Positions 2,649-12,647 of a stretch of 64,000 nt of DNA are shown piece after piece. Numbering within the stretch: the first letter of the stretch is position 1; every line of letters begins with the position of its first letter. Under the pieces are notes generated by a model. It did not search any database. It had not been told where the DNA came from and saw only the letters and a program-made list of their open reading frames with translations. The DNA comes from Bacteroidota bacterium (GTDB taxonomy: Bacteria > Bacteroidota > Bacteroidia > Chitinophagales > Chitinophagaceae), in assembly GCA_016868455.1 (NCBI GenBank), contig VGGV01000013.1:11040-75039 (forward strand). The letters run 5' to 3'. A program made the position numbers and the translations under genes.

Positions 2649-3728
2649 TCAAAATGCCGGTTTATAAATTTCTATCTTGTCGGCCAGTAGTTTTTGTTCT
2701 CCTGTTTTTATAACGGCCGGTAATATTGGCGCCGTCAATCCATTACCAATTGACAATTGCCTGTTCACAAGCACCCTCGCTTCATCCCAGATCTCTTCAG
2801 CAATGAATGATTGCAGCAATCCTGCCCCTCCTTCCACCAGTACACTTTGAAGTTGCAGTTGGTGCAGGGCATTTAAAATTTGGCGAACAAGGCTTACATC
2901 ATGTGTTACCTGGTAATACCTCACCCCAACCCTCCCCATAAATGGAGCGGGGGGAGGCCTCTCTATTTGTTCGGTATGAACTTTTGTATTGAATATGATG
3001 GTTGGCGTTTGCTGGTTAAATATTTTCAGCGATTCTGGTAATTTCAGTTCCATATCCACCACCAGCCGCACCGGTGAATTGCCTGGCCATAACCTTGTTG
3101 TGAGTTCCGGATCATCCAGTAATGCGGTATTTGATCCCACCAGTATAGCCGCTTCTTCGCTCCGCCACTGGTGTACCAGCCGGTTGCTGTATTCATTACT
3201 GATCAGCAGCCTTTCCGAACTCCCGGCTGAAATTTTCCCATCAGCAGTCTGCGCCCACTTCAGTATTACATAAGGCCGGTGTTTTGTATGAAAAGTAAAG
3301 AAGCGTTTGTTCAGTTCTTTGCATTCATTTTCCAGTTCTCCCATCGTAACTTCTACGCCTGCCGCTTTTAGTTTTTCAATTCCCTTTCCGTCCACCTCTT
3401 TAAAAGGGTCACGGCAACCGATTACAACTTTGGGAATTTTATACTGAATAATCAGGTCGGTGCAGGGCGGTGTTTTTCCAAAATGGGCACAGGGTTCCAG
3501 TGATATATATAATACAGAACCGGAAATAAGTTCTTTGTCAGCTTGCATTACTGATTCAATACAATTCACTTCTGCATGCGGCCCGCCATATTGCTGATGC
3601 CATCCTTCGCCGATAATACGGTTTTCATGTACCAGTACGGCTCCCACCATCGGGTTGGGCGCCACATAGCCCGCCCCGAGTTTGGCCAGCTCAAGACAGC
3701 GTTGCATATATTGCTCGTCAATGGTCAA
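2649..3728 (-). CDS. ribD: Bifunctional riboflavin biosynthesis protein RibD (pyrimidine deaminase / uracil reductase)
   Basis: N-terminal CMP/dCMP deaminase zinc motifs (HAEVNCI ... LEPCAHFGKTPPC). The C-terminal RibD reductase domain has RPYVILKWAQTADGKI and SVLVEGG. Confidence 0.95.
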   Translation of the reverse strand: MTIDEQYMQRCLELAKLGAGYVAPNPMVGAVLVHENRIIGEGWHQQYGGPHAEVNCIESVMQADKELISGSVLYISLEPCAHFGKTPPCTDLIIQYKIPKVVIGCRDPFKEVDGKGIEKLKAAGVEVTMGELENECKELNKRFFTFHTKHRPYVILKWAQTADGKISAGSSERLLISNEYSNRLVHQWRSEEAAILVGSNTALLDDPELTTRLWPGNSPVRLVVDMELKLPESLKIFNQQTPTIIFNTKVHTEQIERPPPAPFMGRVGVRYYQVTHDVSLVRQILNALHQLQLQSVLVEGGAGLLQSFIAEEIWDEARVLVNRQLSIGNGLTAPILPAVIKTGEQKLLADKIEIYKPAF

Positions 3729-11047: not shown

Positions 11048-11138
11048 CAATACCGACACTGCCCTGTTATGAAAAATATTTTTTAGTTAGGATTCCTTAC
11101 TATATTTTTAATCTTTCTTCACCTTAAAAATATGTAGT

Positions 11139-11720
11139 ATGGAAACCACTGCTATTAAAGACTACACGTATGGTGCAGCCGCCGCATCACCTGTTACACT
11201 GCAGGACCTTGATTTGCTGAAGCAAACAGTTTTATTTACAGATGAAGATGAAAGATACCTTCAAATGGCAGGCGAAGTGTTGAAAGATCAGACGGATGCA
11301 GTGCTGAACCTTTGGTATGGATTTGTGGGCGGGCATCCCCATCTTGTTTACTATTTCACCAAAAACGGACAACCCGATATGGACTATCTTACTGCTGTCC
11401 GCCACCGCTTCGGGCAATGGATCATGGATTTGTGCAACCGGAAGTATGACCAGCAATGGCTGAATTACCAGCATGAAATCGGCCTCCGGCACCATTCGGC
11501 CAAAAAGAATAAAACGGATAATGTGGACACCGTTCCCATCATCAACTTCAGGTATATGGTTGCTTTTATTTCCCCGATAACAGCTACCATCAAATCTTTT
11601 CTGGCAAAAAAAGGACATAGCAATGAAGAGGTGGAGAAGATGCATACCGCCTGGTTCAAGGCAGTTACACTGACCGTTACCCTCTGGTGTTATCCTTATA
11701 TTAACAAGGGAGAATTTTAA
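11139..11720 (+). CDS. Protoglobin (single-domain heme globin of the globin-coupled-sensor lineage)
   Basis: LWYGFVGGHPHLVYYF, WLNYQHEIGLRHH, YMVAFISPITATIKSFLAKKGH and AWFKAVTLTVTLWCYPY closely follow the protoglobin sequence of Methanosarcina acetivorans as I remember it. Size is about 190 aa. Confidence 0.85.
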   Translation: METTAIKDYTYGAAAASPVTLQDLDLLKQTVLFTDEDERYLQMAGEVLKDQTDAVLNLWYGFVGGHPHLVYYFTKNGQPDMDYLTAVRHRFGQWIMDLCNRKYDQQWLNYQHEIGLRHHSAKKNKTDNVDTVPIINFRYMVAFISPITATIKSFLAKKGHSNEEVEKMHTAWFKAVTLTVTLWCYPYINKGEF

Positions 11721-11730
11721 AGATAAAGAA

Positions 11731-11991
11731 ATGAAAGTAGCTGTTTACGACACCTATGTAAGAAAGAAAGACGGCCGCATTATGCACTTTGACATACTGG
11801 TGCCTTCTCAAATGAGTAACCTGGAAAGTATTTATAGCTATGGTAAAGAATATAGAACCGGAAAGGGACAGGCAGGTCAGCCGCTGAGTGCCCGTGAATG
11901 CCGGTTTTGCCATATAGAAAAAGCAACTGATGAAATGAAAAGGCAGATAACTGAAAAAGGGTATTACATTCTGGAAATGGAGGGATGTTAA
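11731..11991 (+). CDS. DUF2024-family small protein
   Basis: MKVAVYDTYVRKKDGRIMHFDILVP ... ECRFCHIE ... GYYILEMEGC matches my recollection of the DUF2024 consensus. It starts 10 nt after the protoglobin stop. Confidence 0.65.
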   Translation: MKVAVYDTYVRKKDGRIMHFDILVPSQMSNLESIYSYGKEYRTGKGQAGQPLSARECRFCHIEKATDEMKRQITEKGYYILEMEGC

Positions 11992-12026
11992 TCGTCCCTT
12001 CATTTCTGTAATTTTAGCCTGGTCAA

Positions 12027-12647
12027 ATGAAAAAAGGAAAAGCCGCCTTCAGCCCGGATATACAGGCAAATGATACAGACAGCAAGATTATTGTTGCGCT
12101 GGAACGTATTGCTGAAGCTTTCCGGGTGCTGCTGTGGAATGAAAGCAAACAATACAGCCTCAGCCCCATCCAGGTTCAGTTGCTGATTTTTCTTCATACA
12201 CATCCGCCGGTTCAGCGTAAAGTGAGTTACCTGGCGCTTGAGTTTAATATGACAAAGGCCACCATCAGCGATGCAGTCCGGGTACTGGAAGAAAAAAAAT
12301 TAATCAGAAGAGAAACTGAAGCTGCAGACAGCCGCAGTTATATTTTTCATTTAACCGCCGAAGGGGAAAAAATCACTGAAAAACTTTCTCTGTTTGCCAA
12401 CCCGATGCGGCAACCCCTCAGCGAGTTTACTGCTGAAGAAAAAGAAACCTTACTTAACGGTTTGCTGCACCTGGTTTATAATCTGCACCAGGAAAAAACA
12501 ATTGCTGTGCAACGGATGTGTTTCACCTGCCGGCATTATACTTCGGGAAAAAAGAAAAAAGAACATTATTGCAGCCTGCTGCGGGTAAAACTTAAAACCA
12601 GTGAACTCCGTATTGATTGCGCCGAACATGAATATGAAATAACTTAA
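12027..12647 (+). CDS. MarR-like winged-helix regulator with a C-terminal 4-Cys extension
   Basis: The wHTH region is LSPIQVQLLIFLH...VSYLALEFNMTKATISDAVRVLEEKKLIRR. The C-terminus carries CFTCRHY...HYCSLL...IDCAEHE. It starts 35 nt after the DUF2024 stop. Confidence 0.7.
   Translation: MKKGKAAFSPDIQANDTDSKIIVALERIAEAFRVLLWNESKQYSLSPIQVQLLIFLHTHPPVQRKVSYLALEFNMTKATISDAVRVLEEKKLIRRETEAADSRSYIFHLTAEGEKITEKLSLFANPMRQPLSEFTAEEKETLLNGLLHLVYNLHQEKTIAVQRMCFTCRHYTSGKKKKEHYCSLLRVKLKTSELRIDCAEHEYEIT

Follow-up and report, generated by a model that had tools for sequence, protein, structure and literature searches.

We examined a 64,000-nt stretch of DNA (hereafter the window; contig VGGV01000013.1 of a Bacteroidota assembly placed in the Chitinophagaceae, with positions numbered from the first letter of the stretch), and within it a compact cassette of three genes encoding a protoglobin (Pgb), a DUF2024 protein and a MarR-type regulator. 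The genes lie on one strand, with gaps of 10 nt between Pgb and DUF2024 and of 35 nt between DUF2024 and the regulator gene, and their open reading frame (ORF) coordinates match exactly those given in a preliminary description that had been made from the letters alone. In Pfam, the three products matched Protoglobin (PF11563; E-value 2.2e-34, 119 bits against a cut-off of 25), DUF2024 (PF09630; E-value 8.2e-34, 116 bits against a cut-off of 27) and MarR_2 (PF12802; E-value 1e-11, 45 bits against a cut-off of 27); with all three scores above cut-off and the PDB in agreement, the family assignments proposed in that description stand. NCBIfam held a specific family for none of the three proteins, the regulator drawing only sub-threshold, generic MarR matches that included MsvR, archaeal ArnR and, weakly, OhrR. 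The regulator bears a C-terminal tail with four cysteines and is termed MarR4C here. The features discussed, including those of the loci used for comparison, are collected in Table 1.

Table 1. Features of the window (plain coordinates) and of compared loci (L numbers, followed by locus coordinates where given)
Feature	Location	Strand	Description	Basis
Pgb (protoglobin gene)	11139–11720	+	193 aa, single-domain	ORF call, Pfam, PDB
Codon of Pgb Cys99	11433–11435			
DUF2024 gene	11731–11991	+	86 aa	ORF call, Pfam, PDB
MarR4C gene	12027–12647	+	206 aa; MarR winged helix with C-terminal Cys4 module	Pfam, AF2, Foldseek
Cys4 module of MarR4C	12504–12644	+	Residues ~160–206; RMC165-x2-C168-x2-Y-...-H180-x-C182-...-D-C198-x2-H201	
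Putative -33-like element	11080–11083	+	TTTT (TTTG in the Bacteroidota consensus), immediately 5' of the operator	
Operator	11084–11102	none	19-bp palindrome TAGTTAGGATTCCTTACTA; predicted binding site of a MarR4C dimer	
Putative -7-like element	11101–11108	+	TATATTTT (TAnnTTTG in the Bacteroidota consensus); its first 2 nt are the final 2 of the operator	
Hairpin	11973–12007	+	Perfect 15-bp hairpin spanning the DUF2024 stop codon, then UAAUUUUA, a short U-rich stretch	
Cassette of Terrimonas pollutisoli	L204 3121–4615		Pgb and MarR4C, no DUF2024	
c1 genes (thioredoxin-fold CPxC protein)	L081–L200 (e.g. L087); L201 4715–4945; L203 2616–2849		In L087, 66–299 nt after the operator	
Module of Spirosoma sp. 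KUDC1026	L201 4660–7232		Operator, c1, DUF2024, 254-aa protein, HTHP (hexameric tyrosine-coordinated haem protein), 87-aa protein, MarR4C	
Cytochrome P460 genes	L102, L106, L151, L158, L178, L190		Divergent from MarR4C across the operator (L102, L106), first gene (L151, L158, L190) or after MarR4C (L178)	
CPGC thioredoxin-like protein in frame with MarR4C	L018 6080–7315; L020; L083		Single ORF of ~410 aa	
c3 genes (secreted/lipoprotein-like protein)	L002 5593–6336; L004, L009, L089, L114 and ~20 metagenome loci		Recur between the first gene and DUF2024	
Molybdoenzyme	L132 2425–5868	-	Directly after an apparently interrupted MarR4C gene; Fe-S beta subunit gene after it	
Second Pgb paralogue	L013 1226–1882; L014 5557–6243; L017, L019, L024, L029, L068; L081, L086, L139		Directly after the first Pgb	

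The protoglobin resembles that of Methanosarcina acetivorans (MaPgb) almost from end to end, as had been noted from the sequence: residues 4–193 align to residues 4–195 of the solved structure (PDB 2VEB, E-value 1.5e-81), with 63 % identity over 190 residues. Its length is that of the solved ~195-aa class, N-terminal extension included, and no second domain was found by Pfam. His118, Trp59 and Tyr60 align with His120, Trp60 and Tyr61 of MaPgb and are invariant in 20 homologues; from the MaPgb structure we take His118 to be the proximal histidine F8 and Trp59/Tyr60 to be the distal B9/B10 residues. Also invariant across all 20 aligned bacterial protoglobins is Cys99, the counterpart of MaPgb Cys101 (E20), which is the residue changed to Ser for crystallography; this cysteine could be redox-relevant. 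Among 120 listed homologues none was fused to a transmitter domain, and the longer ones carried N-terminal extensions only.

Residues 1–83 of the DUF2024 protein cover all 81 positions of the Pfam profile, and the protein matches the nuclear magnetic resonance structure 2HFQ (NE1680; E-value 1.6e-20), with both the ECRFCH motif and the C-terminal MEGC kept, which bears out its earlier description as a DUF2024-like protein with these cysteines. His19, Cys57, Cys60, His61 and Cys86 were invariant in 20 sequences, and DUF2024 is thus a probable small metal-binding protein. The family is listed as 'metal-binding protein, DUF2024 family' by Makarova et al., and is a core thaumarchaeal gene (PMC6393860). 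Additionally, some Saprospiraceae/Lewinellaceae homologues (P0288, P0304, P0346 and P0359) carry an N-terminal extension of ~45 residues that resembles a transmembrane helix and would anchor them in the membrane.

For MarR4C, residues ~24–155 match solved MarR proteins in the PDB and the tail has no match. The AlphaFold2 (AF2) model, with a predicted local distance difference test (pLDDT) score of 84, comprises a MarR fold and three short strands, and Foldseek searches with it returned MarR folds only (MepR, MexR and SlyA, with target-normalised TM-scores of up to 0.81), PefR being among the matches. The extra C-terminal CxxC...C...C segment that the preliminary description had pointed out is a constant feature of these regulators: its cysteines, spaced C165-x2-C168-x13-C182-x15-C198, are all present in 144 of 144 full-length MarR4C homologues from the fetched loci. 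His180 and His201 are retained in about half of the homologues, and the MarR core has no conserved cysteine, such that the invariant four are confined to the added module. A search of 1.84 billion representative proteins with the tail alone yielded 179 clusters (50 % identity), and the full-length proteins bearing it are nearly all ~190–215 aa long, with the module at the extreme C-terminus. The tail had no Pfam, NCBIfam or PDB relative, a profile search of the PDB giving only noise at E-values ≥ 0.1. Most tails contain a Cys-Pro dipeptide; the window protein reads C-A-E-H at this place, and others C-V, C-S or C-K.

Using the window Pgb as anchor, we compared 80 loci, one per species, from GTDB genomes of ~8 phyla, among them Bacteroidota, Ignavibacteriota and relatives, Acidobacteriota, Bipolaricaulota, Chloroflexota, Fraserbacteria and Kryptoniota. 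A MarR4C gene was found within 3 kb of Pgb at 73 loci, on the same strand at 72 and downstream at 67; at four of the seven loci without a nearby MarR4C, Pgb lies at a contig end. DUF2024 was present at 53 loci and the full trio at 51. When all ORFs were clustered, the three cassette families alone recurred, with flanking genes varying from locus to locus. At the level of gene content and order, these comparisons establish a real cassette that is conserved across many bacterial phyla, and the co-localisation on which the preliminary description had staked its proposal was found for both partners of Pgb. That gene order by itself is no proof of function is a general caveat, and the only point in favour of the view that chance, or co-transcription devoid of any common function, has brought the three genes together; linkage at so many species-level loci from different phyla, where the flanks are unrelated and the operator is shared (see below), effectively refutes this view, to which we assign next to no probability.

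DUF2024 is dispensable to the Pgb–MarR4C pairing, being absent from 27 of the 80 loci. Many pairs lack it, including that of the cultured close relative Terrimonas pollutisoli (L204), which shares the M20 peptidase–FKBP–NamZ–Pgb synteny of the window and has, after Pgb, a 300-nt gap without an ORF at the DUF2024 position, followed by MarR4C; it would make a useful natural 'minus DUF2024' strain. In two-gene modules the Pgb stop and the MarR4C start are 0–12 nt apart, or the genes overlap (L021, L027, L050, L053, L059 and L067). The DUF2024 locus of Chitinophaga horti has neither an operator nor MarR4C, and DUF2024 therefore also exists outside the module.

Upstream of position 11139, where a palindromic operator had been suggested as something to look for, a 19-bp palindrome was found whose family consensus is TAGTTAGGAWTCCTWACTA. 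It is the sole match in the 64 kb at ≤ 3 mismatches, with 0 expected by chance, and the palindrome occurs ≤ 200 nt upstream of Pgb at 65 of the 80 loci. Seven extra copies in ~700 kb of flanking DNA all lie within cassettes, six of them upstream of MarR4C and one upstream of DUF2024. Alignment of 164 sites, oriented by the downstream gene, gave the consensus ...TTT(G)-N-T-a-TAGTTAGGAtTCCTtACTA-TATTTG, in which TTT(G) stands just 5' of the palindrome and ...ACTATATTTG follows it; the sequence of the -7 region in Spirosoma (L201) is TTAGGATTCCTAATTACATTTG. Bacteroidota promoters have the consensus TTTG at -33 and TAnnTTTG at -7, and because the elements flanking the palindrome match this consensus we assign them as putative -33 and -7 elements. 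The palindrome would accordingly fill the spacer between the two, which is the classic position of a repressor site. A sigma-70 promoter scan proved uninformative for a promoter of the Bacteroidota type.

A further tie between regulator and operator comes from the Lewinellaceae/Saprospiraceae, where both half-sites are altered together (TTCGGA..CCGAA) and the linked regulators show two substitutions, D82E (recognition helix) and Y105H (wing); this co-variation is suggestive of a match between MarR4C and its operator. Taking these data together, we consider it very probable that MarR4C is an operator-binding autoregulator of Pgb. Transcript data are available for an activated-sludge locus (L022), where contigs from four metatranscriptomes cover the Pgb gene and have their 5'-most ends at 3202–3217, i.e. 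23–27 nt past the operator and just past the predicted -7 box. These contigs demonstrate in situ expression of the Pgb gene and are consistent with the promoter model; none covers the regulator gene, and as low-depth evidence they give no firm indication of the 3' extent of the operon. In a separate layout found in Flavobacteriales/Chryseobacterium (L005, L011, L012 and L015), DUF2024 is divergent from Pgb–MarR4C, the operator match is weaker and a distinct palindrome, AAGGATCGCGATCCCT, lies ~150 nt upstream of Pgb.

Metagenomes were then scanned with the operator as anchor, and at least 120 loci were examined, with all counts that follow taken among the matches listed. Approximately 20 of these loci contain Pgb, ~80 contain MarR4C and ~50 contain DUF2024. 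The first gene after the operator was most commonly not a globin, but encodes a 77-aa thioredoxin-fold CPxC protein, termed c1 (58 loci, plus 11 short contigs), followed by Pgb (17), MarR4C itself (10), c3 (three) and cytochrome P460 (two, plus L190). The c1 protein is related to NE0084 of Nitrosomonas europaea (PDB 2K8S; E-value 6e-26), and reached threshold for no Pfam or NCBIfam family. Across the loci compared, Pgb was present at 99 and c1 at 70, and the two were never found at the same locus. In the MarR4C tree, Pgb-linked and c1-linked regulators are interleaved, and both use the same operator. Altogether, in at least ~80 of the 120 loci with an operator, MarR4C and/or the operator occur in the absence of Pgb.

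The remaining cargo is varied. Cytochrome P460 (PF16694, E-value 7.7e-35) was found at seven loci, a YgbA_NO-family protein (E-value 3.3e-12), accompanied by a 4Fe-4S protein, at two, a truncated-globin-like protein with a weak Bac_globin match at two, and HTHP (E-value 1.8e-32) at one. Further module genes encode YggS-like, class I GATase, GGACT-like, AAA ATPase and Rof-like small proteins; in addition, there is an adjoining Rrf2 regulator, and in L097 a Fur/PerR-family gene is divergent from the module. P460, the YgbA_NO-family, truncated-globin-like, HTHP and thioredoxin-like cargo and the Rrf2 neighbour point to N-oxide/redox chemistry. The c3 protein (~245 aa, secreted or lipoprotein-like) has an N-terminal CxxC and the motifs HPDFDD..PLWDEN and WHPHW, with no relative in Pfam, NCBIfam or the PDB. 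A second thioredoxin-like protein, which has a CPGC motif, ~205 aa and no family, is encoded by a separate gene before MarR4C in L014, L026, L029 and L037; in Cytophagales this gene sits between DUF2024 and MarR4C. At three loci (L018, L020 and L083) the same protein is in frame with MarR4C, and this may be a natural fusion that functionally links the two. At one locus (L132), a molybdoenzyme gene comes directly after the regulator gene and is itself followed by that of an Fe-S beta subunit; with all hits below cut-offs, the enzyme can be placed no more closely than in the type II DMSO-reductase family, and we did not use it as a link to nitrate.

From these observations we propose that a MarR4C dimer would bind the palindrome between the -33 and -7 elements and that its occupancy of the operator would block transcription of pgb–DUF2024–marR4C, making the operon self-contained and autoregulated. 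The operator and MarR4C form a chassis that usually occurs without Pgb, and therefore MarR4C most likely senses the signal itself, via its invariant C-terminal Cys4 centre, with Pgb as a regulated effector. In our preferred version, the four cysteines would ligate an Fe-S cluster that is nitrosylated or oxidised by nitric oxide (NO) or related reactive nitrogen or oxygen species (RNS, ROS), and damage to the cluster would release the repressor, as in the NsrR–hmp and ArnR–hmp circuits. Pgb would then be an induced cytoplasmic haem effector with the role of using up or buffering NO, nitrite, peroxynitrite or peroxide, and DUF2024 would be a Cys3His(His) metal-binding accessory, common to the non-globin modules as well and possibly serving in electron or metal delivery or in repair. 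We prefer NO and an Fe-S cluster because the cargo resembles NsrR regulons (globins, YgbA) and includes P460, and because ArnR provides a precedent. The proposal as a whole, an autoregulated operon with a Cys4-sensing MarR4C and Pgb as its induced effector, we hold to be evenly balanced for and against; that Pgb is cargo rather than sensor is probable, whilst NO/RNS acting on an Fe-S cluster is a tentative choice of signal, held with rather less than even confidence.

Were Pgb instead a sensor of O2, CO or NO that signals to the MarR protein directly or via DUF2024, the cassette would amount to a split globin-coupled sensor. This idea draws on the place of Pgb in the sensor-globin lineage (PF11563), on its being almost always beside MarR4C in the query clade, on the tight spacing or overlap of two-gene modules and on the invariance of Cys99. 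Pgb is not, however, readily taken for the sensor, because most modules lack it and hold unrelated proteins in its slot, including the periplasmic P460, and because Pgb- and c1-linked regulators intermix in the tree and share the operator; moreover, DUF2024 is missing from a third of the Pgb-anchored loci, and no Pgb–MarR or Pgb–DUF2024 fusion occurs among the homologues examined. In globin-coupled sensors (HemAT and the wider family), which share the Pfam family and lineage of this globin domain, the transmitter is fused to the globin, whereas the window Pgb has none and the neighbouring regulator also serves non-globin partners; the split-sensor reading is therefore not favoured, and we regard it as quite improbable. 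What the preliminary description had proposed is thus supported in part: its three-gene cassette and family assignments hold, and its expectation that the context would be a handle on protoglobin function is realised in the conserved operator/MarR4C wiring, but a haem sensor feeding a Cys partner and a repressor does not fit a chassis that is usually without protoglobin, the mutual exclusion of Pgb and c1, or the many pairs without DUF2024. A further possibility is that MarR4C responds to haem, for example through the Cys198-Pro motif and a His, and controls proteins that buffer or use haem. Four unrelated haem-protein families (Pgb, truncated-globin-like, HTHP and cytochrome P460) appear as cargo, Cys-Pro is found in most tails, and haem-sensing MarR proteins exist, with PefR among the fold matches; yet the Pro is not invariant and is replaced in the window tail itself, four invariant cysteines are typical of a metal centre or cluster and not of a haem-regulatory motif, and the commonest cargo (c1, c3 and DUF2024) has no known haem binding, making haem sensing very improbable.

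A closer competitor is a thiol/Zn redox switch, in which a Cys4 Zn-thiolate, or free thiols, would be oxidised by peroxide, HOCl, a disulfide/electrophile stressor or S-nitrosation, and a derepressed thioredoxin-like reductant (c1 or the CPGC protein) would reset MarR4C, with Pgb as a peroxidase-like protein or ROS/RNS scavenger. It is supported by the prevalence of c1 as first gene after the operator, by the CPGC gene beside MarR4C in Cytophagales and its three single-ORF versions, by the Fur/PerR-family gene of L097 and by the HTHP cargo in Spirosoma, HTHP having reported peroxidase/catalase activity. It explains the P460 and YgbA_NO cargo less well, and Pgb modules have no c1, such that the feedback reductant would be missing from them unless the CPGC protein or DUF2024 substitutes. 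We regard this switch as possible, if somewhat doubtful. Several points weigh against our preferred reading, with its Fe-S cluster and NO/RNS signal, and some of them lend weight to the thiol/Zn switch. For c1, the commonest cargo, a thiol/disulfide switch is no worse an explanation than NO sensing, and the same holds for the in-frame CPGC–MarR4C fusion; a structural Zn site would account for the CxxC...C...C pattern just as well. The isolated tail was modelled by AF2 with low confidence (pLDDT 59), and in Foldseek it had no fold match below E = 2; small Zn modules made up most of these non-significant hits, which we did not count as evidence. The links to N-oxides come from few loci, numbering seven for P460, two each for YgbA and the globin-like protein, and one for HTHP. 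The half-site co-variation is confounded by phylogeny, with all variant operators coming from one lineage. The 80 Pgb loci are those closest to the query, archaeal and other distant protoglobins lying outside the sample, and the operator scan needed a near-exact pattern, so that its counts apply to the matches listed. Lastly, what sequence comparison establishes is the cassette with its internal regulator gene, the operator and its place between the putative promoter elements, the exchange of cargo and the invariance of the four cysteines; that MarR4C represses, which metal it holds, what it senses and what Pgb does chemically we infer, and DNA binding is a prediction.

With respect to known systems, bacterial protoglobins, MarR repressors and circuits that pair a sensor-repressor with a globin are all of kinds already described. 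NsrR is an Rrf2-family, [4Fe-4S]-containing, NO-sensing repressor of the flavohaemoglobin gene hmp and of ytfE, ygbA and hcp. Like the proposed MarR4C circuit, NsrR–hmp has a repressor with a Cys-ligated centre that controls a globin and NO-defence genes from an operator overlapping the promoter, and both the NsrR regulon and MarR4C modules include a YgbA-family gene. The two differ in that MarR4C is a MarR-family protein with a Cys4 tail and NsrR an Rrf2 protein with three Cys and an Asp, and in that the globin is a protoglobin instead of a flavohaemoglobin and the MarR4C gene lies inside the operon. MarR4C had no Pfam or NCBIfam match to an Rrf2 domain, and its Cys4 tail differs from the C-x5-C-x5-C cluster motif of the NsrR/Rrf2 family; it is, at most, a functional analogue of NsrR. 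ArnR of Corynebacterium glutamicum, in which a winged helix-turn-helix is joined to a C-terminal [4Fe-4S] domain and NO abolishes DNA binding, represses hmp and the nitrate reductase operon (PMC12343034). ArnR and MarR4C share an N-terminal MarR/ArsR-like winged helix-turn-helix, a dimerisation helix and a C-terminal Cys-rich domain, as well as a C-x13-C spacing (C179/C193 in ArnR, C168/C182 in MarR4C). Judged by its published description, however, ArnR has three Cys in a larger TRAPPC3/V4R-like domain and occurs almost only in Actinobacteria (PMC12343034), whereas the MarR4C tail has ~45 residues and four Cys, and neither sequence nor fold searches detected a relative of it.

Thiol-based MarR sensors (OhrR, MgrA/SarZ and HypR) likewise combine a MarR fold, a palindromic operator, derepression by Cys chemistry and frequent autoregulation, but they rely on one or two Cys within the MarR core, whereas those of MarR4C lie in an added C-terminal module. 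In OxyR–GrxA and RsrA–sigmaR–TrxBA, a Cys sensor induces a thioredoxin- or glutaredoxin-like protein able to reset it, an arrangement that fits the c1 modules and the CPGC–MarR4C fusion; the MarR4C and c1 families are unrelated to these proteins, and reduction of MarR4C by c1 is hypothetical. Finally, the protoglobins of M. acetivorans and A. pernix (2VEB and 7UTE) share with the window Pgb their length, proximal His, B9 Trp, B10 Tyr and E20 Cys, the window protein differing in its bacterial host and defined regulatory context. The literature that we searched contained no description of a MarR family with a Cys4 tail, of the operator that goes with it, of its near-obligate association with a protoglobin clade or of a modular regulon in which four haem-protein families are swapped with thioredoxin-like and DUF2024 proteins, and no mention of the operator sequence. 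No paper linking protoglobin with MarR or DUF2024 was found, in a search that was partly poorly targeted ('marr' also matching 'marrow'), and searches on NE1680, NE0084, 2HFQ and 2K8S gave nothing useful.

Work on protoglobins goes back two decades and enzyme engineering relies on them heavily, but in protoglobin papers their biological role is still called unknown (e.g. PMC3680402). In the present analysis, the protoglobins of one large bacterial clade are nearly always connected to a Cys4 MarR repressor via a recognisable operator, such that protoglobin function becomes testable by ordinary experiments in culturable Bacteroidota. Cultured carriers include T. pollutisoli, Flavobacterium maritimum and F. 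cyanobacteriorum for the Pgb type of module, and Spirosoma sp. KUDC1026 and Algoriphagus boritolerans for the c1 type. The analysis also defines a new MarR-family sensory module, supplies an operator for regulon prediction, and for the first time places two orphans of structural genomics in a functional setting, namely DUF2024 (2HFQ) and the thioredoxin-fold protein that resembles NE0084 (2K8S). Ammonia oxidisers possess members of both orphan families (N. europaea has NE1680 and NE0084, and Thaumarchaeota have DUF2024 proteins), a weak circumstantial point in favour of the NO/RNS signal. It is conceivable, though we lean slightly against it, that MarR4C is the founder of an unrecognised, phylum-spanning group of Cys4 (Fe-S or Zn-thiolate) NO/redox sensor-repressors and that bacterial protoglobins serve in inducible RNS/ROS defence. 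If so, MarR4C would be the functional counterpart of NsrR and ArnR in Bacteroidota, Ignavibacteriota, Chloroflexota, Bipolaricaulota and others, at the head of a mosaic regulon that swaps four unrelated haem-protein families, thioredoxin-like proteins and DUF2024 proteins under one 19-bp operator.

In the window, the cassette is flanked by housekeeping genes, NamZ upstream and Fmt downstream. Its GC content equals that of the flanks in the composition profile, and recent transfer is therefore not indicated. Antisense ORFs overlapping the three genes had no match in the family search and were set aside as spurious, and no Rfam or tRNA features were found in the whole 64 kb. The window sequence was found in lake-water metagenome DNA runs, with no RNA run among those listed, and the host of the window Pgb is a freshwater Chitinophagaceae-like bacterium.

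At some of the compared loci, a second protoglobin paralogue (~216–228 aa; PF11563, E-value 1.5e-26) directly follows the first (Table 1). It retains the proximal His and B10 Tyr, and with what looks like a Sec signal peptide (MKTKIAILFFTVVLYSTASQAQ...) it is a possible periplasmic protoglobin. Within the window cassette, the hairpin that spans the DUF2024 stop codon has a fold energy of -22.4 kcal/mol (z = -4.6). It is not conserved at other loci, where the DUF2024–MarR4C gap is ~10 nt or the genes overlap; in the window it is possibly an attenuator that lowers expression of the regulator gene.

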